Origin: Candidatus Woesearchaeota archaeon
GTDB taxonomy: Archaea; Nanobdellota; Nanobdellia; Pacearchaeales; UBA284
Length of the DNA stretch: 64,000 bases
Reading direction: 5' to 3'
Assembly: GCA_964396475.1 (NCBI GenBank)
Contig: CAYNFE010000002.1
Location: 40,306 to 104,305, forward strand
Notes under the pieces: generated by a model
Told to the model about the DNA's origin: nothing
Database searches by the model: none
What the model saw: only the letters and a program-made list of their open reading frames with translations
In this document: piece after piece, positions 6,414 through 53,486 of the stretch
Position numbering within the stretch: position 1 is the stretch's first letter
Layout: each line of letters starts with the position of its first letter
Made by a program: the position numbers and the translations under genes

Positions 6414-6734
6414 ATGAATAAAATAAAAGGATTAGGTGGATTAGCTGCTTTATTGACTTTAGCTATAGGTCTTTCTAGTACAAACTGTGATTTTATTGAT
6501 CCTGGAGTAAAAAGCAGGAGAATAGCAGAAAATCATGACCCTGCTAAAGCTGATACTGTTACAGTTAGAAGATATCAATCTTGGTCTGGTATAGCTAAAA
6601 GTATTTGTCCTGAAGGTGTTCATATAGATGATGTTGGAGCAGAAATGAAAAAATTAAATCCACAAATTAAGAGCATACATATGATTTATCCAGGACAAAA
6701 AATAGCAGTTCCTGATTATAGTACAAGAAAATAA
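6414..6734 (+). CDS. LysM-domain secreted protein or lipoprotein
   Basis: N-terminal signal sequence ending in a Cys (LTLAIGLSSTNC). C-terminal LysM-like block YQSWSGIAKSI...LNPQIKSIHMIYPGQKIAVP. Confidence 0.55.
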   Translation: MNKIKGLGGLAALLTLAIGLSSTNCDFIDPGVKSRRIAENHDPAKADTVTVRRYQSWSGIAKSICPEGVHIDDVGAEMKKLNPQIKSIHMIYPGQKIAVPDYSTRK

Positions 6735-8669: not shown

Positions 8670-9722
8670 TTATTTTGTTGTTCTTAATCTTATTCCTTTT
8701 TGTTTTGCTATCTTTTCTACTGCTTTCATTGCTTGTAAGTATCTATGTCTTCTATGACCTTCAGGAGAACTTCCAGAAGGCATACCTCTTCTCAAACCCT
8801 CTCTTCGTGCTTTATCTTGATATCTATTCCATTCTTCTTCATATTTTATCTGATAATGATTCCATTTTGCTTGTAGTTCAGATGCTGATCTTTGTCTTCT
8901 TATAATTTCAGTTCTTTTTTGTTCCTGTCCTCTATTCTCTCTCTCCTTTTTCTCAATCCTTCCTAATTCTTTTTTCCTGCGTTTTTCTCTTTCTCTCATT
9001 TTTCTTTCTTCTTTTATTCTTTGCTTCCCCTCTAACTTTCTTATTCTTTCTTTCTCTTTTCTTCTTTTTTTAGCTTCTTCCTTAAATGCTTTTATCTCTC
9101 CTCTTCTTCTTGCTTCCTCTTCTTTTTCTATTCCTCTTAATTCTTTTTTTCTTGATATTTGTGCACCTAATCTTTCACGCGATCTTGTAATATATTTTGA
9201 TAGAAGTTTGAAAAGAATAACAATAATTATAGCAATTGTTATTACATCTAAAATTATACAAACCATATAAGGAAAAATATAAGGGCAGAATTGTGATCTT
9301 AACCATATAAGCCATAACAAAGCAAGAGCAATTAAGATAATCCAAAATAAAGATCCTTTTTTTCTGAGTTGTTGCCATGAGATTGCAAGAATAACAGCAA
9401 TAAAAAGTCCTACAACCCACCAACCAACTTGAGGAATTATAACACCATAATAATAAATTGTTCCAAAAGAACCCATAAGAGCAAGAACTATGGAAACAAC
9501 AAAAGCAGCACCTTTGCTAGTATGAAAAACTTGCTCTAGAACAAACCAGCATACTGCAAAGATTAATACAAATAACAAGGCTGCATTAACCCATTCGCTC
9601 TGCGCAAGGTCTGAAATAGATGGCATCCCATAATTAGAATAGCCATAGCCATTATAAGCAAGAACTGAACTAGCAATAAGAATAAATGCAAATAAAAATA
9701 CAAAAGCCAGGCCTCTTTTCAT
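8670..9722 (-). CDS. polytopic membrane protein with a long Lys/Arg/Glu-rich cytoplasmic tail
   Basis: The N-terminal ~190 aa contain about 5 TM helices. The C-terminal ~160 aa are low-complexity KR/E-rich coiled-coil (RKKELRGIEKEEEARRRGEIKAFKEEAKKRRKEKERIRKLEGKQRIKEERKMREREKRRK...). Confidence 0.5.
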   Translation of the reverse strand: MKRGLAFVFLFAFILIASSVLAYNGYGYSNYGMPSISDLAQSEWVNAALLFVLIFAVCWFVLEQVFHTSKGAAFVVSIVLALMGSFGTIYYYGVIIPQVGWWVVGLFIAVILAISWQQLRKKGSLFWIILIALALLWLIWLRSQFCPYIFPYMVCIILDVITIAIIIVILFKLLSKYITRSRERLGAQISRKKELRGIEKEEEARRRGEIKAFKEEAKKRRKEKERIRKLEGKQRIKEERKMREREKRRKKELGRIEKKERENRGQEQKRTEIIRRQRSASELQAKWNHYQIKYEEEWNRYQDKARREGLRRGMPSGSSPEGHRRHRYLQAMKAVEKIAKQKGIRLRTTK

Positions 9723-11200: not shown

Positions 11201-11243
11201 TGATTTTTTTATTTATTTTTATTTTTATTTTTATTTTTTACTG
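11201..11243. terminator. T-rich simple repeat (ATTTTT)n between convergent genes; likely bidirectional archaeal terminator
   Basis: tgattttttt atttattttt atttttattt ttatttttta lies between the stop codons of convergent genes 10625..11197 (+) and 11231..12109 (-). Oligo-T tracts terminate archaeal RNA polymerase. Confidence 0.4.
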
Positions 11244-12109
11244 ATTATTTTGTTTATTATTTTAGCCATTTCTCTTACAAATAGATCTGTCTTACCCTGC
11301 CACTCTTCTACTTTGCTTCCTGAAATTTCTGATCTAGATCCATGAAGAATCTCATGTGCTATCTTATGAAGGTCACGATACCAAGAAACATATTTTGAAT
11401 GTAAAGTTCTGTTTCTTACAAAAGTTTCTTCTAAAAGACCTGCGACATGCTCTGGGCTTGGCGGCATTTTCTTTGCTGCTATTAATGCTGCATGGCTTGC
11501 GTCAACCATTGCCCAATAAAGTCCTTCTATACTATTAAGTAAAGAGGCTTTTGTTCTTGCTAAATGAAAAGGGGCTCTCTGTAAAATAACATAAATAGCC
11601 TCTGGTGTGCTTTTCAACTTACCTTTGGCTAGCAGAACTTTAAGGGGTGTGAAAAAACCGCCAAAATCAATCAATGGCTGGCCCCATCTTATTATATTAA
11701 GGATAACAGGCTCTCCTCTTATCATTTCAGTCCACCAAGTGCTTAGCCTGACAGAATTAATATGCAAGGGTTTTCTATAGGGATTTGCTTTAATCAATTT
11801 GCCTAACTCTTCTCTATACCATGCAATAAGTTCAGCATCCCATAATATAGTGCAATCATCAATCAAAACAATAATATCTATATCACTGCCTCTTTTCATC
11901 TTACCTTTGGCAGCTGAACCAAATAAAATTATTGACTTAATTACCTTACCAAATTTTTCATATGTTTTAACTGCAAAATCATAAGCTATATCATTCTCTT
12001 CTTTAATCCTTAAAGTTGGAAATTCTTTCTCGCTTTTCTTTGTAACTTTTGGCTGTCCTATTTTTGGTACTTTAGGAACTTTAGGACTTTTTACTTTTTT
12101 CTTCCGCAT
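11231..12109 (-). CDS. Pol-beta-superfamily nucleotidyltransferase (MNT-like) fused to a C-terminal HEPN-like domain
   Basis: ILFGSAAKGKMKRGSDIDIIVLIDD is the GS...D.D nucleotidyltransferase motif. The C-terminal region contains an R-x6-H element (RDLHKIAHEILHG) compatible with HEPN. Confidence 0.55.
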   Translation of the reverse strand: MRKKKVKSPKVPKVPKIGQPKVTKKSEKEFPTLRIKEENDIAYDFAVKTYEKFGKVIKSIILFGSAAKGKMKRGSDIDIIVLIDDCTILWDAELIAWYREELGKLIKANPYRKPLHINSVRLSTWWTEMIRGEPVILNIIRWGQPLIDFGGFFTPLKVLLAKGKLKSTPEAIYVILQRAPFHLARTKASLLNSIEGLYWAMVDASHAALIAAKKMPPSPEHVAGLLEETFVRNRTLHSKYVSWYRDLHKIAHEILHGSRSEISGSKVEEWQGKTDLFVREMAKIINKIISKK

Positions 12110-12179: not shown

Positions 12180-14024
12180 TTACTCCATTGGTGTTCCTGA
12201 GAATCTTTTTCCTTTACCTGGCATCTGTCCACCCAGCTCCATAGGTAAGGAAGCGAAGCCTGCTCCATAAGTACCAACATGTTGTTCTGGAAGCATCATA
12301 CCATATCCAGCTGAATAGCCTCCTGGTATGCCATAAACTCCTCTTACTTGATTCCAGTATGGTTGCATATCCATTCCATATAAAGGGGAACCAAGAGCCT
12401 CAAGAGTAGGAGGCACTGGAGATGTTTTAAATATAACTGGAAGAGCAGCTGCCTCTATAATCTTTTTTCCTGAAAATCCAGCTTTTTCTAATTCTCTTAA
12501 AACCTCTTTAATAGGCATATCTCCCATTCCTGGCGGTAAATGGCTATCTGCAAAACCAAAATTATCTGTCAGATGAGCATGTTTTACAAAAGGAGCTACA
12601 GCTCTAGTTTGAGCAGCTATAATTTTTTTGAATTCTTTTTCATCATATTTGCCTTTCTTTTCTCCAAGACCAAACTTCCTAAGCAGACCTATATGACCTG
12701 TATCCCATGTTGCTCCAATAAGTTTATTTGCTGCCTCTCTTGCTCTAGATTCATTGACTCCTGAATCTCTTGCTTTTTCTATAAATTCCTTGCGGCTGTC
12801 TTTTATTAAGTTAGCAAGTTCTTCTCCCTCACTAAAGATTGTCCCAGCAAAGAAATTTTCCACAGCTATCATAGGGGCTTTTTCCCCGAATTTTTGATAA
12901 CCATGCAGAGCTGTATTTGCAATAGTCTCTTTAGTCTTATCTCTAGAAAATTTATCAGTAGATTGATAAATTTCAGGTGGGTCTTCTTTTATGACATTCT
13001 GAAATCTTCTTATGACTTCATTGTATCTTTTAGTAGCTTCAATAGGATTTGTCTCTGTCAGATTTTCTGTCTGTATTCTATTTAGGTTATTTTTAATTTT
13101 CTCAAGTTCATCTTTATGTTTCTCTCTTGTTTTTTCATCCCAAAGCCTATTAGCATCATTATAAAAGGTCCTTAGGTGCGCGCCAATATCATCATATATT
13201 ACCTGACCCATACTTAATGTATCTAAAGCCCTCCGCTGTTCTGGTAAAAGTTCTTCTGGGTCTATCCTCTTTTCTTTTATATCTTTTAGAACTGGTTGAA
13301 TTATAGGTGCAGTTCCTGAAATTATATCACCTGCTCTATAATTCTCCCAGGCAATTGAGCTGAAAGTCCTGTCCCATACTTTTCTATTCTGCTCTCTAAT
13401 CTGCTCTTCTGGATTAATCCAATAATATCCTTTTTCTGGATCATATCTTCTCTCCCTTCTAATGCCTGTCAGCTGACCAGATTCTCTGCTCACAACATTA
13501 ACCATATCTTCTTCTGTTATTGGAGCTTCTTCAGGTTTTGGAGCTAGCATTGATGGTATTCCAGAAGTTGCATGAATCACAACAGGAATATTTCCGTTTA
13601 TATCTATCTCATGAGCTCTTTCAATATTTTTTTTGAATTGTATTTCAGATTGTTGTCTTACACTTTCACTCCAACCCCTCTCAGTAAAGCCCGCAGGATC
13701 AATAGATGGTGGAACATGTAAGGAAAAAGTTGCCCCAGCAAGTTTTCCAAGCTGTTTGATTTCTGTCCAGTGTTGTTTTGGCATCACCTCAACTCCTGGC
13801 GTACCCATCTCACTGCTGAAAGGCTGAAGTTCAATAGTTTTCATACCCTCGCTTAATCTTGATGAAACCTCAGCTATCTGATTTCCTGTTTTTATTGAAG
13901 TTGGGGATCCTATTTCAGATGTAGGAACTCTGTATCCAATAAATAAAGGACCATAAGTAGGATCAAGAGGACCATAGCTGCCTGTATAAAATGATTCAAG
14001 GGATTTGTATTTTTCTTGTGCCAT
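12180..14024 (-). CDS. large xylose-isomerase-like TIM-barrel (sugar-phosphate isomerase/epimerase / AP-endonuclease-2 fold) protein with a Gly/Tyr/Met-rich C-terminal tail
   Basis: KHAHLTDNFGFADSHLPPGMGDMPIKEVLRELEKAGFSGKKIIE matches the H.H..D...D.HLP.G.G......L...GY.G....E signature of the xylose-isomerase-like TIM barrel. The 614-aa length includes a unique N-terminal region and a low-complexity tail (GYSAGYGMMLPEQHVGTYGAGFASLPMELGGQMPGKG). Confidence 0.5.
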   Translation of the reverse strand: MAQEKYKSLESFYTGSYGPLDPTYGPLFIGYRVPTSEIGSPTSIKTGNQIAEVSSRLSEGMKTIELQPFSSEMGTPGVEVMPKQHWTEIKQLGKLAGATFSLHVPPSIDPAGFTERGWSESVRQQSEIQFKKNIERAHEIDINGNIPVVIHATSGIPSMLAPKPEEAPITEEDMVNVVSRESGQLTGIRRERRYDPEKGYYWINPEEQIREQNRKVWDRTFSSIAWENYRAGDIISGTAPIIQPVLKDIKEKRIDPEELLPEQRRALDTLSMGQVIYDDIGAHLRTFYNDANRLWDEKTREKHKDELEKIKNNLNRIQTENLTETNPIEATKRYNEVIRRFQNVIKEDPPEIYQSTDKFSRDKTKETIANTALHGYQKFGEKAPMIAVENFFAGTIFSEGEELANLIKDSRKEFIEKARDSGVNESRAREAANKLIGATWDTGHIGLLRKFGLGEKKGKYDEKEFKKIIAAQTRAVAPFVKHAHLTDNFGFADSHLPPGMGDMPIKEVLRELEKAGFSGKKIIEAAALPVIFKTSPVPPTLEALGSPLYGMDMQPYWNQVRGVYGIPGGYSAGYGMMLPEQHVGTYGAGFASLPMELGGQMPGKGKRFSGTPME

Positions 14025-14030
14025 ATATAT

Positions 14031-14630
14031 TTAATGTCCTTTATACTTTTTAATTTTTCTTTCTCTTTTACGCCAATCTAATTCCTCTTCAAAGGGCTCT
14101 CTTGTTGCTTTATCATCATACTTGACAAATTCTCGTGTCTCTTCTAGATTTCCTATTTTTTCCCTTCTTTCAGGTTCTTCTCTCTGAATAGGAATAGTCA
14201 TCTCAGGTCTTCTTTTAGGTAAGAATTCTGTAACTCTTTCTATTCTTGGAGTAATTTCTTTCGCTCTTTCTTCTTCTCTTCCCTTTTCTTCAACATATTT
14301 TCTTTCTTCTTCACTTGTACTGGCATAACCAGTATGTGTATCATATCTTCTATCTTCTTTTTTTTCTTTTTTAGTTGGAATTTCAGCTAAAGAATCTTCA
14401 AGTCTTCCAGTTCTAGATTCATCTTTTTCTAGAATAGGTATGATAGGTTTTCTAGACCTAAATTCTTGCACCTGTTCAGAAGGAATTTCTCTTACTTCTT
14501 TTTTTTCTTCTTTCTTCTTTTCCTCTTTTTTTTCTTCTTTTGGCTTATCTTTTTCTTCTTTCTCTTTTTCTTCTTTTTGCTCCTCTTGTTCTTCTGTTTC
14601 CTCATCAGTTTTTTCATTTTCATCTTCCAT
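14031..14630 (-). CDS. Glu/Lys-rich low-complexity protein, hypothetical
   Basis: 199 aa. The N-terminal third is almost pure E/K (EEQEEQKEEKEKEEKDKPKEEKKEEKKKEEKK). It sits between two larger co-oriented genes in the same operon. Confidence 0.4.
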   Translation of the reverse strand: MEDENEKTDEETEEQEEQKEEKEKEEKDKPKEEKKEEKKKEEKKEVREIPSEQVQEFRSRKPIIPILEKDESRTGRLEDSLAEIPTKKEKKEDRRYDTHTGYASTSEEERKYVEEKGREEERAKEITPRIERVTEFLPKRRPEMTIPIQREEPERREKIGNLEETREFVKYDDKATREPFEEELDWRKRERKIKKYKGH

Positions 14631-14649: not shown

Positions 14650-16020
14650 TTATTTAGGTTGCCATCTCTCTGGCATTTCAAATTCAGGTGGACCAAAAGA
14701 AGCCATTCCATGACTTTTCTTATAAATATCATAAATCTTATAACATAATTCAGCTGCTGTTCTTTCTGCAAGAGCCCTCACAATAGACTCTTCAAAATTA
14801 TCTTTTTTGATCTTGCCTATCTCAAGCTCTTTCTTTTTTTCTTCCTCTTTTTTAGGCTTTTCCTCTTTCTTTTTATCTTCTCCTATAAAATGCTCTATAT
14901 CCTCAAGCATATGAGAAAGACTTTCTTCTGTAACACTTTCTACTAACCTTAATGCATCTTTGAAATCTTCTTTATCTAATTCTTTATTCATAACTTCAAT
15001 TTCATGATCATTCATGGTATATGCCTTAAAACTTATTTCTGCACGACCACCAAAAACATAATGTCCTTGTGGTGTTCTTGTAGGTGTGCCTCTAAAAACA
15101 AAATCTACAAGAACACAAGAATGATAATCTCTCTTTAATTTTAAATTTCTAAAATTTTTTGGTAAATTTCCAGAATCAACTTCCTTGACTATATTTACAG
15201 TATTCTTACCAAAAAGACATAGCTCTAAAAGGACTATATTAAAAGCCTTAACTAGAGCAGGCTCTCTAGTCTTTTCTTTCATCATAAGTTCGTTGGCAAC
15301 TTTGAGATAGGGTTTTGCCCATCTAGTGTAAATTTTTAAAGTTCCTACTTGATTTTTTACCCATGATTTTTCTACCTCATATCTCTTACGAAGTTCAGAC
15401 TCACTCTTTTCCTTCCATGCTAGAAATTCAGCAACTCTTGGTTTTAGAACCCTTTTTACCCTATCATTTAAATCCATCTTGTCAACCTCTTCTGGAGTTT
15501 TGGCAACCATGAAAGCATCTCTAATAGTGGAAAAACCTAGCTGTGTTGCAAGCGTGTCTATGCTACCTATTCTCTGCTTGTCAACTTTCTCTAGCCATAT
15601 TTGTTTAAGACCAAGAATTCCAACCTCTTGTTCTTTAGGATCTTTACTGCTAGTAAGATCATATTGTTTTAACCTTACTTCAAATTCCCTAAGATCATAA
15701 AGTAAGTTAATCAAACTTCTAATCATAGCCCCAACTGTTCCCATTATTTTCATCCCCTCTTCTTGCATTATTTTTGCTCTTTGACCCATCTCTGCAAAAT
15801 AACCGCTTCCTGGAGAAGCTGCAAAATTATCAATAATCTTCTCTACTTCAAAACCAAGATCTCTCATGAATTCTACGATCCAAAAATAAACAGGTTCAAG
15901 TTGTTCTGCGGGGCTATCATAAACAATTTTGTGTTCCCATACTGGTTGCTCATACTTAGGATTTATTTCAGCTATGATATCAGATGTAGTTTTAAAGCCC
16001 TCTTTTTTCTCTTCTGTCAT
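14650..16020 (-). CDS. hypothetical protein (456 aa), first gene of a three-gene operon
   Basis: Long ORF with good coding appearance. No recognisable catalytic or NTP-binding motifs. Lys/Glu-rich C-terminal segment. Confidence 0.5.
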   Translation of the reverse strand: MTEEKKEGFKTTSDIIAEINPKYEQPVWEHKIVYDSPAEQLEPVYFWIVEFMRDLGFEVEKIIDNFAASPGSGYFAEMGQRAKIMQEEGMKIMGTVGAMIRSLINLLYDLREFEVRLKQYDLTSSKDPKEQEVGILGLKQIWLEKVDKQRIGSIDTLATQLGFSTIRDAFMVAKTPEEVDKMDLNDRVKRVLKPRVAEFLAWKEKSESELRKRYEVEKSWVKNQVGTLKIYTRWAKPYLKVANELMMKEKTREPALVKAFNIVLLELCLFGKNTVNIVKEVDSGNLPKNFRNLKLKRDYHSCVLVDFVFRGTPTRTPQGHYVFGGRAEISFKAYTMNDHEIEVMNKELDKEDFKDALRLVESVTEESLSHMLEDIEHFIGEDKKKEEKPKKEEEKKKELEIGKIKKDNFEESIVRALAERTAAELCYKIYDIYKKSHGMASFGPPEFEMPERWQPK

Positions 16021-16103: not shown

Positions 16104-16424
16104 ATGGTCTTTGGAAAAATATTCAAAAAAAAGAAACCAAAAAATGAGGCAGTTATTGATTTGGGAAAGCTTAACGAGATACAAAATAGAACAAGAATGC
16201 TACAAGAGGCAACTCAGATCACAGATACAGAAACTGATACTGGTTTTCTTGGGAATTTAGCAAGCGCAGCAAGCACTAGCGACACGAGTCATGTGGCTGT
16301 TTCAGGAATCGATCCAGAAAAAATAGAAAGACTTAACAGAAGAATAGATACCTTGATAGATAGGTTTGAACTTATAGAAAGAAAACTAGAAAGAATCGAG
16401 AGAAGAGTAGACTTAAAATATTAG
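16104..16424 (+). CDS. small coiled-coil protein, hypothetical
   Basis: 106 aa. The C-terminal heptad-like segment is IERLNRRIDTLIDRFELIERKLERIERR. Confidence 0.35.
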   Translation: MVFGKIFKKKKPKNEAVIDLGKLNEIQNRTRMLQEATQITDTETDTGFLGNLASAASTSDTSHVAVSGIDPEKIERLNRRIDTLIDRFELIERKLERIERRVDLKY

Positions 16425-16429
16425 TCAAA

Positions 16430-16909
16430 ATGAAAAAAAAGAAGGTGAGTAAGAATATAATAGAAAGAGAGGGAGGTGAAATAAAACTTTTCTTTTTTAT
16501 AATTATTGTATGTTTTGTTTTTGTAATCGATAGATATACTAAATTATTATCAAATTTTATTAGTGGTTGTTTTATTCTATGTATAAGACAATCAATTAAT
16601 TATGGAGCTGCCTTCAATCTTTTTAGTGTTTTTGGATGGACTAGAGTTCTTTTAATACTTATCGCACTCATAGTATTATTTTTTACTGCATTTTTATATT
16701 TTAGAACAAAAGAATTCAATTATTTTTATATAGGTTTAGTTTTACTCTTTGCCGGAACATTAAGTAATTTATTTGATAGGATTTATTTTGGTTATGTTAC
16801 AGATTTCTTAACTTTTAGTTTTATTCCATTCCCTGCTTTTAATATTGCTGATATTAGTAATCTTATTGGTGTTATAATTCTCATAGTTTTTCTTTTAAAG
16901 AAGAAATAA
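16430..16909 (+). CDS. lspA: lipoprotein signal peptidase II (LspA-like, A8 aspartic peptidase)
   Basis: Four hydrophobic helices plus both LspA signature blocks: SINYGAAFNLF (N.GAAF) and DRIYFGYVTDFLTF...FPAFNIADISNLIGV (catalytic Asp blocks, including FN.AD). Confidence 0.65.
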   Translation: MKKKKVSKNIIEREGGEIKLFFFIIIVCFVFVIDRYTKLLSNFISGCFILCIRQSINYGAAFNLFSVFGWTRVLLILIALIVLFFTAFLYFRTKEFNYFYIGLVLLFAGTLSNLFDRIYFGYVTDFLTFSFIPFPAFNIADISNLIGVIILIVFLLKKK

Positions 16910-16934: not shown

Positions 16935-17681
16935 TTAAGCTGCTTCAAAAACAACATGAACTGATGCACTTACTGTAACTTTTCCTATCTCTACTGATGT
17001 TGGTGTTTCAATTTCTCCACCTTCACCACCTATTGTCTTTGCCCTATAATCTACTGCATAAATCCAAGGTCTATAATCCCATGTGGTATCTTGAACAGTT
17101 TTTATACCTTTAATTTCTAAGTTTAAACCCTGAGCTATGCTCTCTGCTTTTGTTCTTGCGTTTTCTGAAGCTTTTTTAAGAGCTTCTTCTTTAAGTTCAT
17201 TCATTTCTTCATCTGATAAAGAATATTGAATGTTATCAACAAAATTTGCTCCAGAGCCTACTGCTGCTGTTATGAATTTTCCAATGTTAGTATAATTTTC
17301 AATCTTTATCTTTAATCTGTGGTTAACCCTATACCCTTTAAGATTCCTCGTGCCTTGAAGCCAATCATACTCTGGATATAAATTATAAGAGTCTGTTTCT
17401 ATCTCACTTTCTGAAAGACCCTCATTGACTAAAGCCTTTTTAATTGCTGCAATTGTTTCTGCATTCTCTTGCTCAGCTTCTTGTGCATTTTCATTTGTAT
17501 TTTGATAACCTAAATAAAGGGTTGCTATTTTTGCTTGTCTCTCTAATTCAGCATTTCCATTTACATCAATAGTTCTTCCATCAGAAGGCCATGGTTTGAA
17601 AACAAAAAGCACTGTAACAAATACTGCTACTATCACAAGAATAAGAATTGTCAAAAGAATATTCGTTGTTTTAATTGCCAT
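16935..17681 (-). CDS. SIMPL-domain (DUF541) membrane-anchored protein
   Basis: N-terminal TM anchor followed by the SIMPL-family pattern: ...YRVNHRLKIKIENYTNIGKFITAAVGSGANFVDNIQYSLSDEE...LKEEALKKASENARTKAESIAQGLNL. Confidence 0.65.
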   Translation of the reverse strand: MAIKTTNILLTILILVIVAVFVTVLFVFKPWPSDGRTIDVNGNAELERQAKIATLYLGYQNTNENAQEAEQENAETIAAIKKALVNEGLSESEIETDSYNLYPEYDWLQGTRNLKGYRVNHRLKIKIENYTNIGKFITAAVGSGANFVDNIQYSLSDEEMNELKEEALKKASENARTKAESIAQGLNLEIKGIKTVQDTTWDYRPWIYAVDYRAKTIGGEGGEIETPTSVEIGKVTVSASVHVVFEAA

Positions 17682-17731: not shown

Positions 17732-19405
17732 ATGAAAAAAGAAATAGGTGAAAAGAAGATTCTTGCTTATGCTCTTGCTAATGCAATAACCCATGATGGT
17801 AAAGCACAAGTAGGAGCAGTATTACCAAAATTGTTCCAAGAGGGTTTAAGAAAAGAACAAATAAAATCTATTCTACCAAAAATCCAAAAAATAGTCAAGG
17901 AAGTTAACTCTTTAAACAAAAAAGAGCAAGAAGAAGAATTTCAAGAACTTAACAAACTAGTAAAAAAGAGAAAAGAAAGAGAGGGTCTACCACAATTGCC
18001 TAAAGCAAAAAAAGAAAAAGTGATTATGAGGCTTGCTCCTTATCCATCTGGACCTTTACATATTGGAAATGCTCGTCCTGTAATTCTTAATGATGAGTAT
18101 GTTAAGATGTATGGAGGTAAACTTTTTCTTGTTGTTGATGATACTATAGGAAGTGAAGAAAAAAAGATTGTCAAGGAAGCTTATAGATTAATCCCAGAAG
18201 GGCTTAATTGGTTAGATATTAAGTATAATAAAAAAATAATCTATAAATCAGATAGGTTAAAATTATATTACAAGCATGCTGAAGATTTGATAAAAAAAGA
18301 TAAGGCATATGTCTGTTTCTGTGATGCTGAAACCTTACATAAAAATAGATTTAAGGGAAAAGAGTGTGAACATCGTAAAGTAAGTCCAAAAGAAAACCTA
18401 AAACATTGGAAAGAGATGTTAGAAGGAAAATATAAAGAACATCAAGCCACACTTAGAATAAAGACAAGTATGAAAGATAAGAATCCTGCTTTCAGGGATA
18501 GGGTTCTTTTTAGAATATCAGAGAGAAAACATCCAAAGACGGGAAATAAATATAAAGTTTGGCCTATGCTTGAGATGAGTTGGGCTATAGATGATAAACT
18601 TCTTGGAATAACACATGTTTTGAGAGGAAAGGAATTAATGATTGAAACAGATATGGAAAAATATATCTTTGACATTTTTAAATGGAAATATCCTGAATTT
18701 ATTCACACAGGCCTTTTGCAATTTGAAGGAGCTAAATTAAGTAAGAGCAAATCTCAGAAGGAAATTGCAACAGGAAAATATTTTGGTTGGGATGATCCTA
18801 GAACATGGTCTCTGCAATCTTTAAAAAGAAGAGGTATAAAGAAAGAAGCACTTAGAGTATTCATATTACAATTTGGAATAACTCAGACAGAAATAACTGT
18901 GCCTATAGAAGCCCTCTATAAAGAAAACAAAAAATTTGTCGAATCAAGTGATAGATATTTTTTTATTGCAGATCCTGTAAAGATAAGAATAAAAGATGCT
19001 GAGAAATTAAAAACAAAAATGCATTTACATCCAGATTATTCTAAGAGAGGGGATAGAAATTTTACAACATATCAAGATTTCTATATTTCCAAAGATGACT
19101 ATAAAAAAATTAGTAAGGGAAAAACATATCGTTTTATGAATCTGTTTAATTTTAAGAATTTCAAGTTCGTTTCTAAGGAACATAAACCAGAACTAGGAGC
19201 TAAACTCATTCATTGGCTTCCTATACAAAAAGATTTAGTCAAGACAGAAATATTGATGCCTGATTCAATAGTTATGAAAGGTCTGGCTGAGAATGGAATC
19301 AGGAAATTAAAAGCTGGAGAAATAATACAATTCGAGCGTTTTGGATTTTGTCGTTTTGATAGAAAAGAAAAAGATAAGTTTGTTTTCTGGTTCAGTCATA
19401 GATAA
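17732..19405 (+). CDS. gltX: glutamyl-tRNA synthetase (archaeal-type, probably non-discriminating GluRS)
   Basis: Class I HIGH region PYPSGPLHIGNARP and KMSKS-type motif GAKLSKSKS. Domain order is typical of archaeal Glx-RS. There is a ~90-aa N-terminal extension. Confidence 0.8.
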   Translation: MKKEIGEKKILAYALANAITHDGKAQVGAVLPKLFQEGLRKEQIKSILPKIQKIVKEVNSLNKKEQEEEFQELNKLVKKRKEREGLPQLPKAKKEKVIMRLAPYPSGPLHIGNARPVILNDEYVKMYGGKLFLVVDDTIGSEEKKIVKEAYRLIPEGLNWLDIKYNKKIIYKSDRLKLYYKHAEDLIKKDKAYVCFCDAETLHKNRFKGKECEHRKVSPKENLKHWKEMLEGKYKEHQATLRIKTSMKDKNPAFRDRVLFRISERKHPKTGNKYKVWPMLEMSWAIDDKLLGITHVLRGKELMIETDMEKYIFDIFKWKYPEFIHTGLLQFEGAKLSKSKSQKEIATGKYFGWDDPRTWSLQSLKRRGIKKEALRVFILQFGITQTEITVPIEALYKENKKFVESSDRYFFIADPVKIRIKDAEKLKTKMHLHPDYSKRGDRNFTTYQDFYISKDDYKKISKGKTYRFMNLFNFKNFKFVSKEHKPELGAKLIHWLPIQKDLVKTEILMPDSIVMKGLAENGIRKLKAGEIIQFERFGFCRFDRKEKDKFVFWFSHR

Positions 19406-21545: not shown

Positions 21546-22490
21546 TTATCTTATGATTGTTACTTTCTTTGGCTTTTGTATCTTATATTTATCAGGAACT
21601 ACAAAATAAATTCCTGAAGATATATCTGCTTTTCTTAAGTCTAGTCTATCTGAATTAATGCTTAAGACTTTCTTACCAGAAGCATCATATAAGAAGCCTT
21701 CAATATTCTTTCCAAATGTTAAGTAGTTAGTTGCTGGATTTGGTTTTATGATTAAAGATTCATGTAATTTGTTTTCTAAATTTTCTTTTATCCCTGTTGA
21801 TTGAAACTTTATTGTGTCAGCAACTAATTGTGCTTGCCCAAGAGCTGTATCGACTTCAAAAGTGACTGGAATTATTGTTGAACCTTTTGTGAATTCTGTT
21901 GTGATTGAATCTCCAGGTTCTATATCTAAAGCTCCAATAGGATAAGCATGGAAAAAATGTCCATTCAATGCAGTATCTAATGCTGTAGTACATTGTAATG
22001 CAGGATTGTTATTTTTATAAGATATTGCTAGTATTGGATCTGTTAGACCTGTTTCATCTATAAGTTTTCTTACATTTGGTGCATGCTCTAACAATGTATC
22101 AGACTGATTGTCATAGAATAATTCTAGTCCTTTTGATACATCATCATTTATAATCACCTTACCAAATACCCTGTTATTACCATTCCATGTTTCATTGCTA
22201 ATCGTATCTCCCATATGTGGCCAAGGAGTCCATCCGCCATGGAATGGAAGATAAATCTTTCCCTGCTCATTAGGAGAACCATATGTCTCTCCAGGTAATC
22301 CCTGTCTCCAAGATTTTGTAGTATCTTGTGGAGATGAATCATTTACATATCTAGTAATAGCTGTCACTGCTTCAGAAATTGTTGGTATTAGAATTAAACC
22401 TGCAGCTGTCAAAGCCAAAGCTGTTTTGGTTTTATTTTCCATCAATCTAGTAAAGCCTTTATATTTATAAACATTTCGTTTTGTTGTCAT
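21546..22490 (-). CDS. secreted protein, hypothetical
   Basis: N-terminal signal peptide (KTALALTAAGLILIPTISEAVTA). Possible beta-sandwich C-terminal domain. Confidence 0.45.
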   Translation of the reverse strand: MTTKRNVYKYKGFTRLMENKTKTALALTAAGLILIPTISEAVTAITRYVNDSSPQDTTKSWRQGLPGETYGSPNEQGKIYLPFHGGWTPWPHMGDTISNETWNGNNRVFGKVIINDDVSKGLELFYDNQSDTLLEHAPNVRKLIDETGLTDPILAISYKNNNPALQCTTALDTALNGHFFHAYPIGALDIEPGDSITTEFTKGSTIIPVTFEVDTALGQAQLVADTIKFQSTGIKENLENKLHESLIIKPNPATNYLTFGKNIEGFLYDASGKKVLSINSDRLDLRKADISSGIYFVVPDKYKIQKPKKVTIIR

Positions 22491-26233: not shown

Positions 26234-26347
26234 TGGGCCCGCTGGGATTTGAACCCAGGACCCCTGGCTCTCTTAGAGTCATACAACCCTAGAATGGATT
26301 GTGGCCATATAAGACCAGTGCTCTAAACCAGGCTGAGCTACGGGCCC
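26234..26347 (-). tRNA. tRNA-Ile (anticodon TAT) with a ~38-nt intron in the anticodon loop
   Basis: The reverse complement is GGGCCCG-TA-GCTC-AGCCTGGTTTA-GAGC-A-CTGGT-CTTATA, then [TGGCCACAATCCATTCTAGGGTTGTATGACTCTAAGAG], then A-GCCAG-GGGTC-CTGGG-TTCAAAT-CCCAG-CGGGCCC-A. A canonical 37/38 intron position gives the loop CU-UAU-AA. Only 3 nt separate it from tRNA-Glu. Confidence 0.65.
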
Positions 26348-36896: not shown

Positions 36897-37159
36897 GGGT
36901 AGGTTAGGCTGGCACGCTAGCCCTGTGCCGTTTGTAAATGGGCTTTATGACAAGCTTAAGAGGAGGCGTTATATGCTTGCTCGAAAGTCCTGGCTTGGAC
37001 GTTGAGGTCTTGTCCTGCTTGATCTTGCCCTAATAAACCGGGTCAGTTCCGGAAGGAGGCAGCCCTAAGTTAGAGTTAAGATGCTTGTAGGGTTGCAAGG
37101 CTGAGGAAGAGTTAGGGTAGCTTTCTTGTTGGTATAAAAGCAAATCCTCGAACCTGCCC
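36897..37159 (+). ncRNA. ffs: signal recognition particle RNA (7S/SRP RNA)
   Basis: ACCGGGTCAGTTCCGGAAGGAGGCAGCC at 37038-37066 matches the universally conserved SRP RNA helix-8 motif with its GGAA tetraloop (compare E. coli 4.5S GGUCAGGUCCGGAAGGAAGCAGCC). The 5' GGGTAGGTT (36897) pairs with the 3' AACCTGCCC (37151-37159), closing the molecule. The region is GC-enriched, has no ORF, and is followed by a T5 tract. Confidence 0.55.
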
Positions 37160-37177: not shown

Positions 37178-37663
37178 ATGAAACAAGAAAAAAGAGGGCA
37201 ATTTTTCATTATATTTGCGGTAATTCTCGGCATTATCATTCTAGGATTAGCTACAGTGTTCAATACAGCAATAAGAACAGGAAGAGAAGGGATAACAGAA
37301 AAAAAATTCAATACAATGTGTCAGAATTACAAAGAAGAAACATATAGAGTAAGTCAGTATGCAATAAATACAACTAATAAAAGTAATGAGTCTGGCTTAA
37401 TCAAAGACTTTACAATAAAATACCTAAATTATGCTAAAAAAACTGATCCTGCCTTCGGTCTTGTCTATATTTATGGTAATGTTAGTAAAGTAATTATTTT
37501 CAATTCAACAACTACACAAGCCGAAACAATTCTAAATCCTCCAAATCCTTATCCTGTTCAAATAAGCGAAAAAATTAATAAAGAATATGAACTTTCTAAT
37601 GATGAAAGATTTTGGTTTGTTGCTATAACAGAAAAAGATGGTGAAGAATATGTTTGTGAATAA
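37178..37663 (+). CDS. type IV pilin-like protein (archaeal class III signal peptide)
   Basis: N-terminus MKQEKRG|QFFIIFAVILGIIILGLATVF: a short basic leader, KRG, then a hydrophobic helix. This is the prepilin/preflagellin (class III) signal pattern. Confidence 0.6.
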   Translation: MKQEKRGQFFIIFAVILGIIILGLATVFNTAIRTGREGITEKKFNTMCQNYKEETYRVSQYAINTTNKSNESGLIKDFTIKYLNYAKKTDPAFGLVYIYGNVSKVIIFNSTTTQAETILNPPNPYPVQISEKINKEYELSNDERFWFVAITEKDGEEYVCE

Positions 37664-38156
37664 AAATAAAGATAAAAGAGGAGTAAGTATTCTTGTTTCT
37701 TATGTCTTACTTATTACTTTAGCTCTAGCTCTGGCAGCTGGAACATATTATTTCTTAAGAACTTATGCAGAAAAACCTCTTCCAGAAGAAGGATGTCCTG
37801 AAGGAACCAATGTAGTAATTGAAAATTATTCTTGTGAAGATAATATGTTAGACATAACTCTAAAAAACAGAGGACTACATAGTATTACAGGAGTATATAT
37901 TAAAATTGCTAATGAGTCAGAATCAGAGCTTTTGTATGATTTCTGGGAAATTACTTCTCGTTATGATCCTACTTGTATCAAATCTAATAATTGCACTCCT
38001 TGTGAATTATATCCTGGAGGAGAATGTAGTGAAACAGATATTCCTTATAATATTATAAAGAAAATAGTAATAATACCATACAAGGCAGAAGGATCTTACA
38101 CTTCTCTATGTGATAATGCCGTTATTAGCTTAAATGTTGAGTGTCCTCCTATTTAA
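37638..38156 (+). CDS. type IV pilin-like protein (class III signal peptide), Cys-containing
   Basis: N-terminus ...NKDKRG|VSILVSYVLLITLALALAAG. Overlaps the upstream gene by 26 nt (operon). Confidence 0.55.
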   Translation: MVKNMFVNKNKDKRGVSILVSYVLLITLALALAAGTYYFLRTYAEKPLPEEGCPEGTNVVIENYSCEDNMLDITLKNRGLHSITGVYIKIANESESELLYDFWEITSRYDPTCIKSNNCTPCELYPGGECSETDIPYNIIKKIVIIPYKAEGSYTSLCDNAVISLNVECPPI

Positions 38157-38190
38157 TAAAATATATAAATCAGAAAAACAATAAATAACT

Positions 38191-38631
38191 ATGGAAGATA
38201 AAAGAGGAATTTCACCTGTTATTGCGACAGTCTTATTAATTGTTGTAGCAATAGTCCTTTTCTTGCTCATATTTATGTGGATTAGAGGTTTTCAAAAAGA
38301 AGCTATAACAAAGCAAGGAACACCTATAGAGACTATGTGTCTAGAGGTTAATTTTGATTTAGTAAAAAGTGGAAATACACTACAGATAATTAATACAGGA
38401 AATGTTCTGATTTACAATGCAAAGGTCTATGTTACTAACGGTGACACTACACTTATTACAGAAAATACTGGAACCATAGCACAAGGCAGCATCATAAGCG
38501 TTACAAATAATCTGATTGAGTCATGTACTACTGAAAAAATAAAAGTTATTCCTGTCTTACTTGGAACAACTAAAAGTGGAGCTCAGAAAGAGTATGTTTG
38601 TGAGAAACAAGCACAAATAATTCCATGTTAA
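38191..38631 (+). CDS. type IV pilin-like protein (class III signal peptide)
   Basis: MEDKRG|ISPVIATVLLIVVAIVLFLL, the canonical archaeal pilin/archaellin-like KGISPVIATVLLI core. Confidence 0.65.
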   Translation: MEDKRGISPVIATVLLIVVAIVLFLLIFMWIRGFQKEAITKQGTPIETMCLEVNFDLVKSGNTLQIINTGNVLIYNAKVYVTNGDTTLITENTGTIAQGSIISVTNNLIESCTTEKIKVIPVLLGTTKSGAQKEYVCEKQAQIIPC

Positions 38632-38643
38632 ATTCAATTAATC

Positions 38644-39243
38644 ATGCTAAAAGAGGTAAATAAAATAATGAAAAATAAAAAAGGAATTGCTCCAGTGATT
38701 GCCACAGTTTTATTGATAGTGATAGTTATTGTTGCAGTAGCTCTAATTATTGCTTTTATAATACCATTTATGCAACAACAAATGGGAGAAGCAGAGTTAT
38801 GTTATGAGGCCAGAGTTGACATAAAAGAAGCTTGTTACTATGATGAACCTATTCTTAAGGTGCGTATTGGAAGAGGTGCAAAAGAATTTGATCTCACAGG
38901 AATGATGTTACAAGTTTCAACTGCCACAGAAACAAAGACCTATAAGATAACTGATGAATTAAAAGCTTTAGAAGAAAAAACATTTGAGATAAACACAGAA
39001 GCAGAATTTAGCTTTAACAGCACAGATGTTGTTTCAATAGCAATAGCACCAATAGTGAGAAGTGGTGAAACAGAAAAAACTTGTGAAGTTACATCAACAA
39101 AAACTCAGATAATAAAATGCTTATGCAACTGTTTTGATTTAGAATGTGGTGTAGATAGTTGTGGAGAAAATAACGATGCATGTGGAACATGTGGTACTGG
39201 CAAGATATGTGTTAGTGGTGTGTGTACAGATCAATCACTATAA
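38644..39243 (+). CDS. type IV pilin-like protein (class III signal peptide) with Cys-rich C-terminal module
   Basis: MKNKKG|IAPVIATVLLIVIVIVAVALI. The C-terminus is KCLCNCFDLECGVDSCGENNDACGTCGTGKICVSGVCTDQSL (11 Cys in 42 aa). Confidence 0.65.
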   Translation: MLKEVNKIMKNKKGIAPVIATVLLIVIVIVAVALIIAFIIPFMQQQMGEAELCYEARVDIKEACYYDEPILKVRIGRGAKEFDLTGMMLQVSTATETKTYKITDELKALEEKTFEINTEAEFSFNSTDVVSIAIAPIVRSGETEKTCEVTSTKTQIIKCLCNCFDLECGVDSCGENNDACGTCGTGKICVSGVCTDQSL

Positions 39244-39253
39244 TAAATAAAAA

Positions 39254-39769
39254 ATGAAAAAACAAGCAGTAGTCTGGGTTTCTACAGTTCTTTATATCTT
39301 GATTAGCTTGGCTGTTCTTGGTATTGTGCTAGCTGCTGTGCAGCCAAGAATTAATGCAGCCAGAGATAAGGCAGCCATAGATCAGACAATTAATCTTCTT
39401 AATGAACTAGACCAGAAAATAATTGAGGTTGATAATTCTGCAGAAGGAAATGTTCGTTCACTCAACTTGCAAATAAAAAGAGGCATCCTTACAATTGATG
39501 AGGAAAATGATAGAATAAGATGGCAATTAGCAGATTCTTCTTATAAATACAGCGAGTTAAAAAGAATAGTCAAGGTAGGCAGGATTGATGCTTATACACT
39601 AGAGTCTGCTAGTGGTTTCAATGTTACTCTAACATTAAATTATATTGGCACTCTTGACTTAGTTTCTAATCTTCAGCCATTACAATCTGCTGAAATACCT
39701 TATAAACTCTTCATAAAGAATAATGGCTTAGTTAATGAGATTAATGAAATTGAGATTTATTCTTCTTAA
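39254..39769 (+). CDS. signal-anchored or pilin-like protein (atypical: no KG cleavage motif)
   Basis: MKKQAVVWVSTVLYILISLAVLGIVLAAV hydrophobic N-terminus. Last gene of the pilin-like cluster. Confidence 0.45.
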   Translation: MKKQAVVWVSTVLYILISLAVLGIVLAAVQPRINAARDKAAIDQTINLLNELDQKIIEVDNSAEGNVRSLNLQIKRGILTIDEENDRIRWQLADSSYKYSELKRIVKVGRIDAYTLESASGFNVTLTLNYIGTLDLVSNLQPLQSAEIPYKLFIKNNGLVNEINEIEIYSS

Positions 39770-41633: not shown

Positions 41634-43112
41634 ATGAAAGCAGACTCTGACCTAGACTCAAAACTAAAAAATTTACAAGAATATCCAGACTTAGAAGACT
41701 CACTTAAAAATTTACAAGAGTTATGCATGGATATAGCTACTTTTTATAGTGAAAAGGATATGCAAAAGTACTTTTCACTTTCTTTCATATTAATAGGGCG
41801 CCAAAATAAAAAGGAAAAACTTGTTGAAAAGCTTAAAAATCTTAAGAGTGTTCTTGAAGATCCACAGATTCCAAAAGAAATTGTAGATAAAACTTATGAT
41901 GCATATAAGATATTAACCTCTAACATTCTTGATGAAGAAACAAAACCTATAGGTTCACTTAGAGGATATATATTTGATGAAGTAATCAGGGCAGAAGAAA
42001 TCAAAAGGCCTTCTGAAGAGCAACCAGAAGAAGCCATAAAAGAACAGATACAAGATATAACAAAATATACAAAACCAGAAATAGAAACCCCTATCCAAAA
42101 ACATGAGCCTCCAAAACCTAAGCATGTAATAGAAAAAAAAGAACCTGAGCCTGTAAAAAAACATTATGAAAAAAGGCTTAAACCTATTAAAAAGGAAAAG
42201 AAAGAGAAAGTTAAAAAAGTTAAAGCTAAGAAAAAGAAAACAAGAAAAACAACAAAAAGAATTATGGGTTTAGCTATACCTTTGGGTGTTCTTACTGCAG
42301 GAATTATCACCACAGCTTCTCTTTATTATACTCAAAAAAATAAAATAGATTCAATTAATCAAGAAATAGCAGAAACACAAAAAATATGTCAGTATACTGT
42401 AGAAAAAGGAAAAATTAAAGAGCTTGCTAAAAAACTTTCTGGTCAGACATTATATGCTAAAGATTTAATTGCTATTATTCAAGATAGCACAGATATCAAA
42501 TCAGGAAAATACAAATTAAATGATTTAATATCTTGTGATGATCATTATTTTGAAGAAGATATCAATGAGTATTTTGAAAATACTGAGATTAATGTTAAGA
42601 AAAGAAAGAAACCACTAAATCAACCTTTGGGTGCTCCTGTCATTTTTGCGGCAGGTTATGGTGTAGTTGGCAGAATAATATGGGGGGGTATTGATAATAA
42701 ACCACATGGCGGCATAGATTTTTGTAGCAAGGATCCAAATATTTATGCAGCTGGAGATGGTATTGTAGTTAAAGTAAAAAACAAATATAAGAAGTGGAAA
42801 GGATATGGTAAATTTCTAGATATACGGCATCATTATGGAGATGTAGAATTTATTACAAGATATGGTCATTGCAAAAATATCTCTGTAAGTGTAGGTGATT
42901 CTGTAAACTTAGGTGATAAAATAGCCGAGCTAGGAAGAACCGGAAGAGCAACAGGAGTACATTTACATTTTGAAGTTAGAAAAAAATGGGGACATGTTAA
43001 TCCAGGACCTTATTATGAAAAAATAACAGCTTGTCAAGTTAAGGAAAATAATTCTAATGCATATCAGATCTATAAGAGACTTAATAATGAGCAAGCAACT
43101 GTAAATAAGTAG
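41634..43112 (+). CDS. M23-family (LytM-type) metallopeptidase with N-terminal region and TM anchor
   Basis: C-terminal domain GGIDFCSKDPNIYAAGDGIVVKV...GYGKFLDIRHHYGDVEFITRYGHC...LGRTGRATGVHLHFEV. The HxxxD and HxH (HLHFEV) zinc-binding signatures of M23 are present. A TM helix lies around residue 210. Confidence 0.7.
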   Translation: MKADSDLDSKLKNLQEYPDLEDSLKNLQELCMDIATFYSEKDMQKYFSLSFILIGRQNKKEKLVEKLKNLKSVLEDPQIPKEIVDKTYDAYKILTSNILDEETKPIGSLRGYIFDEVIRAEEIKRPSEEQPEEAIKEQIQDITKYTKPEIETPIQKHEPPKPKHVIEKKEPEPVKKHYEKRLKPIKKEKKEKVKKVKAKKKKTRKTTKRIMGLAIPLGVLTAGIITTASLYYTQKNKIDSINQEIAETQKICQYTVEKGKIKELAKKLSGQTLYAKDLIAIIQDSTDIKSGKYKLNDLISCDDHYFEEDINEYFENTEINVKKRKKPLNQPLGAPVIFAAGYGVVGRIIWGGIDNKPHGGIDFCSKDPNIYAAGDGIVVKVKNKYKKWKGYGKFLDIRHHYGDVEFITRYGHCKNISVSVGDSVNLGDKIAELGRTGRATGVHLHFEVRKKWGHVNPGPYYEKITACQVKENNSNAYQIYKRLNNEQATVNK

Positions 43113-52514: not shown

Positions 52515-53486
52515 TTAAGAAGTCACATATAAATCAGAATTTCTATCAATTAAGCTAGCTCCCATGCCTTTTCCAAACAAATAAGAGCGTTGTGACTGCA
52601 TGCTGAACAATAAGTCAAATAAACCTATCTCTCTTTTGTATTCCCTTATATTTGCCTTTATTTCTAATTGTTTTTCTATATAGTTTATTGCCTCTTCTTT
52701 TGTCCCTAACTCATCTACAAGGCCAAGATCTTTAGCTTCTTTTCCGAGATAAAACATTCCATCAGCTAATTCTCTTACTTGTTCTTCTGGCATTTCTCTG
52801 TTCTGAACAATTTCTTTTACAAAGTCTTCATAGATAATATCAAGCTTTTTTAAAATCATGTCTCTCTCTTCTTCTGTAAGCGCTCTAAAAGGACTCATGA
52901 CATCTTTATGTTCTCCTGATGTTAATTTTTCATAAGTAATATTATATTTCTCAAACAATCCAGAAAATTCCAAATATGATGCGATGACTCCAATAGAGCC
53001 TGTAAAACTTAAAGGATGAGCTATAATATGATCACAAGCAGATGCTATCCAGTATGCTCCAGAAGTTCCTTGCTCTCTTATTAATGCTACTGTCAATTTT
53101 TCTTTTCCTGCCTTCTTTACTGCTTCTGCTATTTCACTTGATGCAACAGCACTACCACCTGGACTGTTAATTTCAAAAATTATCGCCTTAATATTATCAT
53201 CTTCTATTGCTTGATCAATATAGGAAACAATTTCATCTGAACTTGCTGTTCTTTGGAACATGAAATCAAAACCTCCAGTTGTTGTGATTGTGCCTTCTAC
53301 AGAAATTAAAGCAACATTTTTCCCAAAATCCTTATTACCAATTAAAAGAGCTATTATTATTACAAAAGCAATGACAGCGATTATTATCCATAGAACAGTC
53401 CATTTATGTCCTATGCTTTTTCCTCTTTTCATAAATGTCTGAAAGAATTTGTTTTTTATAAATTTAATGATTATTTTCCTTAACAA
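52515..53486 (-). CDS. sppA: signal peptide peptidase SppA (S49 family, 36K type), membrane-anchored
   Basis: N-terminal TM helix, then ISVEGTITTTGG, INSPGGSAVASSEIAEAV (catalytic Ser region) and HPLSFTGSIGV blocks. Confidence 0.7.
   Translation of the reverse strand: MLRKIIIKFIKNKFFQTFMKRGKSIGHKWTVLWIIIAVIAFVIIIALLIGNKDFGKNVALISVEGTITTTGGFDFMFQRTASSDEIVSYIDQAIEDDNIKAIIFEINSPGGSAVASSEIAEAVKKAGKEKLTVALIREQGTSGAYWIASACDHIIAHPLSFTGSIGVIASYLEFSGLFEKYNITYEKLTSGEHKDVMSPFRALTEEERDMILKKLDIIYEDFVKEIVQNREMPEEQVRELADGMFYLGKEAKDLGLVDELGTKEEAINYIEKQLEIKANIREYKREIGLFDLLFSMQSQRSYLFGKGMGASLIDRNSDLYVTS

Follow-up and report, generated by a model that had tools for sequence, protein, structure and literature searches.

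Within a 64,000-nucleotide stretch of DNA from a Candidatus Woesearchaeota archaeon (contig CAYNFE010000002.1, order Pacearchaeales; the whole stretch is called the window below), the open reading frame (ORF) at positions 16430–16909 (+) encodes a genuine homolog of the bacterial signal peptidase II, LspA (Peptidase A8 family), with an intact catalytic Asp dyad, in an archaeal genome. We think it rather probable that the product is an active LspA-type signal peptidase of Pacearchaeota, anciently acquired from bacteria, which matures lipid-anchored surface proteins. In some sister lineages of the same LspA clade, a gene for a bacterial-type Lgt lies 8–9 kb from the LspA gene.

Publications through 2026 hold that Lgt and Lsp have no archaeal homologs (PMC12462473, PMC13631571, PMC13251419, PMC7613921), a view shared by reviews of 2018 and 2022 and taken over by the first-pass annotation of this DNA, which in this respect matches what has been published. 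The same statement is repeated in a 2026 follow-up to Hong et al. in the Journal of Biological Chemistry (PMC13631571), and a 2026 phylogenomic study of RefSeq genomes in mBio describes Lgt as "absent from archaea" (PMC13251419). Our literature search, which included the supplements of Castelle et al. (2021), found no report of LspA or Lgt in DPANN archaea. NCBI already labels close relatives of the protein described here "signal peptidase II [Candidatus Pacearchaeota archaeon]".

An LspA Homolog with an Intact Catalytic Dyad

The gene starts with ATG and encodes 159 residues with four transmembrane (TM) helices and a Lys-rich N terminus that is predicted to be cytoplasmic. The product matches the Pfam profile PF01252 (Peptidase_A8) with 88.3 bits (gathering score 25, E = 6.9e-25) over positions 1–141 of the 142 in the profile. 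A phmmer search of the PDB sequences returned only LspA entries (5DIR/9EMZ from P. aeruginosa, E = 1e-12; 6RYO from S. aureus, E = 1e-11), and the alignments to these chains bring both Asp blocks into register. The N57-Y-G-A-A-F62 block (16598–16615, +) corresponds by alignment to the N-x-G-A-A-F block of LspA. In the D116-R-I-Y-F-G-Y-V-T-D125-F126 block (16775–16807, +), the first catalytic Asp, D125, aligns with the Asp of "VVDF" in P. aeruginosa LspA, and in the F137-N138-I-A140-D141 block (16838–16852, +), the second catalytic Asp, D141, aligns with that of "FNLAD". We take the catalytic dyad to be Asp124/Asp143 in P. aeruginosa numbering (5DIR).

The conservation of these residues was assessed in an alignment of 28 sequences, comprising 13 close archaeal homologs and 15 bacterial LspA proteins. 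Fourteen columns are invariant (D34, K38, N57, G109, N113, D116, R117, V123, D125, F137, N138, A140, D141, and G147), and G59 and F62 are near-invariant. Furthermore, both D125 and D141 are kept in all 150 of the best representatives from an exhaustive profile search of 1.84 billion representatives. The ORF has no frameshifts and retains every catalytic and structural invariant. Judged by these sequence comparisons, the resemblance to LspA is not due to chance. The first-pass annotation had proposed an LspA homolog carrying both signature blocks, and had named a significant PF01252 match and conserved catalytic Asp residues as the points on which the proposal hung; the motifs lie where it had described them, the profile match is significant and full-length, and the dyad is invariant across both sequence sets. 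Among divergent archaeal LspA proteins, the Asp equivalent to D116 (N-L-x-D-R motif) is replaced by Asn in loci L022, L047, and L051, two of which belong to lineages that have Lgt.

Predicted Fold and a Cysteine Pair after the First Helix

An AlphaFold2 model of the archaeal LspA, built from the 28-sequence alignment, has a mean predicted local distance difference test score (pLDDT) of 89.1 and a predicted template modeling score (pTM) of 0.82. It contains four long helices (residues 3–41, 71–92, 98–120, and 139–158) and a short β element after the first of them, in line with the 159-residue, four-helix membrane protein that had initially been annotated, whose length is also exact. When the model was compared with the PDB using Foldseek, the only significant matches were LspA structures (5DIR, 6RYO, and 6RYP), with TM-scores of 0.72–0.78 and root-mean-square deviations of 2.5–3.2 Å; the next match beyond the LspA chains had an E value above 2.

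The periplasmic segment after TM1, a β-hairpin in the model, carries a feature specific to the archaeal clade, the Cys pair in G46-C47-F-I-L-C51 (16565–16582, +). C51 is the same in all 13 close archaeal homologs, and conservation of C47 and G46 is at least 90%. The pair (consensus GCFxxC) is found in all tabulated LspA proteins with archaeal synteny and in most relatives on short contigs, four of which have a gap there, whereas bacterial LspA proteins have L/M/F and R/H/N at the positions of C47 and C51. Among the best 150 representatives, which were clustered at 50% identity, 24 have the GCFxxC motif, and 21 of these 24 rank within the top 35.

Residues I44-S-G-C47 (16559–16570), directly after TM1, resemble a lipobox. 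Cleavage of the archaeal LspA at this site is unlikely, because the Cys is too distant from the N terminus to end a standard signal peptide and conserved residues lie within TM1. Lipidation of C47, or a C47–C51 disulfide, is conceivable.

Archaeal Context and Age of the Gene

The genome context is archaeal, as the first-pass annotation had it. The window contains an archaeal signal recognition particle (SRP) RNA (Archaea_SRP, 36897–37159, +; RF01857, 103.3 bits against a gathering score of 96.5) and an archaeal-type glutamyl-tRNA synthetase (GluRS) downstream of lspA (17732–19405, +; TIGR00463 gltX_arch, 540.7 bits), together with family B DNA polymerase, FEN1, the small and large subunits of RFC, CDC48, an Elp3-like protein, and an archaeal topoisomerase I (Topo I, topA_arch). 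The GC content of about 0.30 is uniform across the window, and that of lspA matches its flanks.

GluRS serves as the downstream anchor of a conserved gene order. The anchor on the other side is a divergently oriented gene for a 456-residue protein (14650–16020, −) that has no Pfam, NCBIfam, or PDB match. A LspA homolog 72% identical to that of the window is encoded on the complete chromosome of Candidatus Pacearchaeota archaeon isolate Pace33H (CP061211.1, 710,724 bp), where the neighbors are the same as in the window, that is, the 456-residue protein, a protein of about 107 residues, LspA, a SIMPL-domain protein, GluRS, and Topo I. A scan of metagenomes with a profile of the archaeal LspA clade yielded 38 further loci, and in nearly all of the longer ones BLAST against the window proteins showed that the 456-residue protein and archaeal GluRS still flank LspA. 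Homologs of the 456-residue protein that are 41%–67% identical to it flank LspA in L012, L015, L016, L022, L024, L029, L036, L042, and L048, and a gene for a protein of 456 residues is also next to LspA in L001 and L002; in L047 the blastp match to it is limited to a stretch of 48 residues, and in L029 this flank is kept with no GluRS within the stretch fetched. The synteny persists where LspA identity has fallen to 32%–40% and GluRS identity to 41%–56% (L022, L024, L036, L042 on an 831-kb contig, L047, and L048). The same gene order also occurs in one Logan assembly and in many JGI contigs.

In a neighbor-joining tree, all LspA proteins with archaeal synteny form one clade apart from the bacterial sequences. 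Because synteny is retained at low sequence identity, the archaeal proteins are monophyletic, and they have a Cys pair of their own, the distribution points to old vertical inheritance. As far as sequences can tell, a single ancient acquisition with later vertical descent and diversification would produce this pattern, and a recent transfer does not fit. A relative lacking the motif is found in "Pacearchaeota archaeon ex4484_31", where it is annotated only as hypothetical.

Directly upstream of lspA is an ORF of 106 residues (16104–16424, +) that is separated from the start codon of lspA by 5 nt and has no Pfam or NCBIfam match. It is probably co-transcribed with lspA, and a homolog lies directly upstream of LspA in L004, L012, L015, and L016, and, with a weak match, in L042. 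Downstream and convergent with lspA is a gene for a membrane-anchored SIMPL/DUF541 protein (16935–17681, −; PF04402, 159 bits), a conserved neighbor in close relatives only. The 456-residue protein is part of a block of four genes on the minus strand (11231–12109, 12180–14024, 14031–14630, and 14650–16020) that adjoins LspA in all divergent archaeal lineages examined, at 38%–81% identity. The products are proteins of 292 residues, 614 residues (with a weak AP_endonuc_2 match), 199 residues (acidic and Lys-rich), and 456 residues, and the block may be a lineage-specific core module.

Lgt in Sister Lineages and the Absence of AliA and AliB

Locus L047, one of those with archaeal synteny, has a gene for a full-length Lgt 9 kb upstream of LspA (PF01790, 180.7 bits; TIGR00544, 131.8 bits, cutoff 118.9). 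With this Lgt as the query, a clade of some 30 proteins was recovered, with NCBI names that include "prolipoprotein diacylglyceryl transferase" and the taxa Nanoarchaeota, Woesearchaeota, and Nanoarchaeia. In L051 and L052, Lgt lies 8 kb from a Peptidase_A8 gene that itself adjoins archaeal GluRS, and another Lgt is encoded, along with RpoL, on a groundwater contig of 364 kb. The archaeal Lgt proteins keep both Arg residues that are critical in E. coli (R143 and R239), as well as G154, Y235, and an acidic residue at 243. The bacterial relatives that score best against them belong to Patescibacteria (CPR); one borderline match, P0240, has a clearly bacterial context.

The first-pass annotation had suggested looking for Lgt and Lnt homologs. 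Lgt was found in the sister lineages represented by L047, L051, and L052; the window and about 142 kb of DNA from its own sub-lineage yielded none, a result that is weighed below. Among the multi-TM proteins of the window there was no LGT or Lnt-type Pfam match, and no search aimed at Lnt was made; Lnt is optional in bacteria. A 350-residue multi-TM protein (8670–9722) was considered as a divergent Lgt-like enzyme and rejected, with an hhalign probability of 0.6% and Pfam and NCBIfam matches that were all sub-threshold.

At every archaeal Lgt locus, the gene after Lgt encodes a small MarR/DUF7343-like winged-helix protein (L047, 671–1222; L049, 10809–11300; L051, 10732–11226). In L047, L051, and L052 the gene after that is a Peptidase_U32 gene, and DsbD-like or heavy-metal-associated genes are near Lgt in L047, L049, and L050. 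Lgt, the winged-helix gene, and these neighbors may constitute a conserved Lgt operon in Nanoarchaeota.

The distribution of the archaeal lipidation proteins AliA and AliB, which we assessed through the Pfam DUF63 model and a published table, leaves room for such a pathway. In Supplementary Data 1 and 3 of Hong et al. (preprint 10.1101/2024.08.27.609747), where both proteins are labeled DUF63, zero AliA and zero AliB (arCOG02177/02178) are recorded for 24 of the 25 genomes of Pacearchaeota and for every Woesearchaeota genome, and most other DPANN groups have AliA. Among the multi-TM ORFs of the window, 64 kb of the genome, Pfam found no DUF63 protein. The same preprint gives SignalP 6 lipoproteins among secreted proteins, for example 4 of 23 and 5 of 37 for Pacearchaeota and, for Woesearchaeota, 20 of 49 and 60 of 117, and predicts 1–5 lipoproteins per genome in the former versus 12–60 in the latter (10.1101/2024.08.27.609747). 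Since these groups have predicted lipoproteins without AliA, a bacterial-type Lgt-LspA pair fits the gap in the phyletic pattern.

Candidate Substrates

The first-pass annotation had pointed to a LysM protein encoded in the window (6414–6734, +; PF01476) as a possible substrate. The protein exists and has a signal-peptide-like N terminus, MNKIKGLGGLAALLTLAIGLSSTN, which ends in C, the residue Cys25; its role as an LspA substrate is a weak candidacy on sequence grounds, because the lipobox is non-canonical, the gene is 10 kb away, and there is no homolog to show whether the Cys is conserved (none was found in any fetched locus). The SIMPL neighbor of lspA was considered and rejected as a substrate, because its N-terminal anchor contains no Cys.

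Searching about 304 kb of archaeal loci for lipoboxes with a naive PROSITE-style pattern yielded 13 matches, nearly all of them in antisense or overlapping ORFs. The one convincing precursor is encoded in L017 (12829–13125), with the signal peptide MNGLRNIILSLVILFGIS followed by CAKKG. The gene lies two genes downstream of LspA in this close relative, and the window has no equivalent. The search for lipobox proteins that the first-pass annotation had suggested thus gave a canonical precursor in a relative and none in the window.

Proposed Mechanism

By analogy with the solved LspA structures, the archaeal LspA would reside in the cytoplasmic membrane with its Lys-rich N terminus inside and the D125/D141 dyad at the outer surface or outer leaflet. 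After export by Sec and lipidation of the lipobox Cys, it would cut between residue −1 and the modified Cys, as its bacterial counterparts do, and the mature proteins would stay lipid-anchored on the cell surface. The released signal peptide would then presumably be degraded by the signal peptide peptidase SppA (S49 family), encoded in the window at 52515–53486 (−; PF01343, 142 bits; TIGR00706, 206 bits, cutoff 155), which its genomic context makes a likely downstream partner. In sister lineages LspA would work with the bacterial-type Lgt encoded 8–9 kb away, and in the genome of the window an Lgt would be encoded elsewhere.

The ancestor of Pacearchaeota and Woesearchaeota would have gained lspA from bacteria long ago and passed it on vertically since, beside the same archaeal genes. 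Because Pacearchaeota and Woesearchaeota are without AliA and AliB (DUF63), the bacterial Lgt-LspA pair most likely replaces the native archaeal AliA/AliB route.

Alternative Explanations

Several observations weigh against an active, Lgt-dependent lipoprotein signal peptidase in this lineage. The NCBI equivalog model for lspA, TIGR00077, gives 65.9 bits and does not reach its cutoff of 73.95; this near miss reflects sequence divergence and weakens the case for strict functional equivalence, not for family membership. In the 28-sequence alignment, the periplasmic β-cradle segment after TM1 is about 10 residues shorter in the archaeal proteins than in the bacterial ones. Neither a phmmer search with E. 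coli Lgt nor an archaeal Lgt hidden Markov model (HMM) found a match in the 64-kb window or in the approximately 142 kb of its own sub-lineage, with strong positive controls, and among the matches listed (the best 120 of 403 and of 3100) there is no Lgt named as Pacearchaeota and none on CP061211.1 or the source contig of the window. The residues before Cys25 of the LysM protein, S-T-N, fail the PS51257-type lipobox rule ([AGS] at −1), and no protein in the window has a canonical lipobox ([LVI][ASTVI][GAS]C after a signal peptide), although with 1–5 lipoproteins predicted per Pacearchaeota genome the lack of one in 64 kb is uninformative.

These negative results could also be read as the sign of an LspA that is active in Pacearchaeota proper without any Lgt, cutting signal peptides at Cys residues that are unlipidated or lipidated in another way, or serving in another membrane-peptidase role. 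The lack of Lgt in the sub-lineage DNA and among Pacearchaeota-named matches would agree with this, as would the far lower number of predicted lipoproteins in Pacearchaeota than in Woesearchaeota and the non-canonical box of the sole Cys-bearing signal peptide in the window. In addition, certain Lsp enzymes of Gram-positive bacteria act in lgt mutants on precursors that carry no lipid. However, the DNA searched covers a fraction of any sub-lineage genome, and the Lgt matches were the best-scoring part of longer lists. Sister lineages within the same LspA clade have both Lgt and LspA, a close relative encodes the canonical precursor of L017, and all conserved residues facing lipid or substrate are kept in the protein of the window. 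We regard an LspA working without Lgt as a less probable explanation that still carries appreciable weight, and prefer an LspA that matures lipid-anchored proteins. Two further alternatives concern the origin of the gene. A bacterial gene, for example from CPR, could have been joined to an archaeal contig through contamination or mis-assembly, given that the family is otherwise bacterial and that DPANN and CPR have common habitats and low GC. Against this, lspA has the GC content of its flanks and sits between conserved archaeal genes on a contig that also carries the archaeal SRP RNA, and the order recurs in an independently assembled complete chromosome, in the Logan assembly, and in many JGI contigs; because of the archaeal markers on the contig and the same neighbors on CP061211.1, we give contamination next to no chance. 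The gene might instead be a recent horizontal acquisition or a decaying relic without function, in a window that is a mosaic with other bacterial-type genes such as leuS_bact (894 bits). This is likewise highly improbable, as the synteny extends across lineages whose GluRS proteins are 41%–56% identical to that of the window, the proteins form one archaeal clade with its own signature and at least 24 clusters at 50% identity, and the ORF is unbroken with all catalytic and structural invariants in place.

Comparison with Known Systems

The archaeal protein has in common with bacterial LspA (SPase II, MEROPS A8; 5DIR, 6RYO/6RYP) the Pfam family, the four-TM fold, the Asp dyad, and conserved Asp, Lys, Asn, Gly, Arg, Val, Phe, and Ala positions, and in sister archaeal lineages it also has a true Lgt partner. 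It differs in its archaeal host, in the shorter segment after TM1, in the GCFxxC pair, which is absent from the bacterial homologs examined, and in a sequence identity of only about 30%.

AliA and AliB (DUF63; arCOG02177/02178; HVO_2859/HVO_2611 of Haloferax volcanii) act in the same overall process, by which lipobox proteins mature on the surface of archaeal cells. Unlike LspA, they serve the lipidation step and not cleavage, and they are unrelated to the archaeal LspA in sequence. To our knowledge, the signal peptidase that acts after AliA in other archaea has not been identified.

The class III prepilin signal peptidase PibD/FlaK (Peptidase A24) is likewise an aspartyl protease with several membrane spans, and it too cleaves off N-terminal signal peptides in archaea. 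It belongs, however, to another family with another fold, cuts before the hydrophobic segment of the pilin, and requires neither a Cys nor a lipid; the ORF at 16430–16909 has no A24 match. Likely substrates of such an enzyme in the window are the products of five consecutive small genes (146–199 residues) at 37178–39769 (+), directly downstream of the SRP RNA, each with a short charged N terminus followed by one hydrophobic helix. One of them weakly matches, below threshold, the N-terminal domain of archaeal type IV pilins, and the five look like a pilin cluster processed by the class III signal peptidase.

The archaeal Lgt clade scores closest to the Lgt proteins of Patescibacteria (CPR), including Parcubacteria and Uhrbacteria, with which it has the W26 and N146-to-C substitutions in common. 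The bacterial genes differ in their context, which includes LigA, GatCA, and a bacterial prepilin peptidase. The sequence likeness suggests CPR-like donors in the same habitats for the archaeal Lgt.

Other Features of the Window

Further tRNA synthetase genes in the window are of mixed type. The leucyl-tRNA synthetase (LeuRS, 50021–52483, −) is bacterial, with 894 bits for TIGR00396 (leuS_bact) versus 237 bits for the archaeal model. The alanyl-tRNA synthetase (AlaRS, 46655–48400, +) is a short form of 581 residues that scores above the cutoffs of PRK01584 and TIGR00344 (general alaS) and far below that of the archaeal model. With a bacterial LeuRS alongside an archaeal GluRS and Topo I, the genome is, by these profile assignments, a bacterial/archaeal mosaic. 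A tRNA match of 114 nt at 26234–26347 (−), beside a tRNA-Glu (Rfam), was not called by ARAGORN and is probably an intron-containing archaeal tRNA. A secreted-looking protein of 314 residues (21546–22490, −) matches Por_Secre_tail, the C-terminal sorting domain of the bacterial type IX secretion system (T9SS), below threshold (22 bits, E = 2e-4); such a domain would not be expected in an archaeon, and the match may be due to chance.

The window also encodes two proteins directed at peptidoglycan, the LysM protein (6414–6734) and a 492-residue Peptidase_M23 protein that has one TM segment and resembles a murein endopeptidase (41634–43112). Their presence agrees with a published proposal in which small Pacearchaeota attach to bacterial hosts. 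Castelle et al. (2021) proposed small Pacearchaeota and Woesearchaeota as possible episymbionts of bacteria, and some Woesearchaeota carry bacterial glycerol-3-phosphate (G3P) dehydrogenase and fatty-acid genes (PMC8204110).

Implications

The enzyme family itself is well known, and the NCBI pipeline already gives its close archaeal relatives the family name; in these respects the finding is not new. What is new is that the archaeal clade is large, old, and vertically inherited, that it is paired with Lgt in sister lineages, that it coincides with the DPANN groups that have no AliA, and that it runs counter to statements in the current literature. The statement that archaea lack Lgt and Lsp is untrue for one large and widespread archaeal group. 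The finding has no bearing on the missing signal peptidase of Euryarchaeota.

A further-reaching proposal, which we put forward tentatively and consider more doubtful than not, is that Pacearchaeota and Woesearchaeota, the Nanoarchaeia branch of DPANN, swapped AliA and AliB for a complete Lgt-LspA pathway derived from CPR, implying bacterial-type glycerophospholipids in their membranes. The lipid donor of Lgt is phosphatidylglycerol. A full Lgt-LspA pathway, with its need for this lipid, would therefore point to bacterial-type lipids in archaeal membranes, either made by the archaea themselves or scavenged from bacterial hosts. If the proposal is true, the lipoprotein machinery would be a genomic marker of DPANN archaea living on bacteria, and the shortened, Cys-stapled β-cradle would be an adaptation of LspA to a hybrid membrane.

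The archaeal LspA offers a concrete explanation for how Pacearchaeota and Woesearchaeota can have predicted lipoproteins and yet no AliA, and it provides a small, tractable candidate enzyme for lipoprotein processing in archaea. Furthermore, it raises the question of which lipids host-dependent archaea use, and adds to the evidence that some of them are associated with bacteria.

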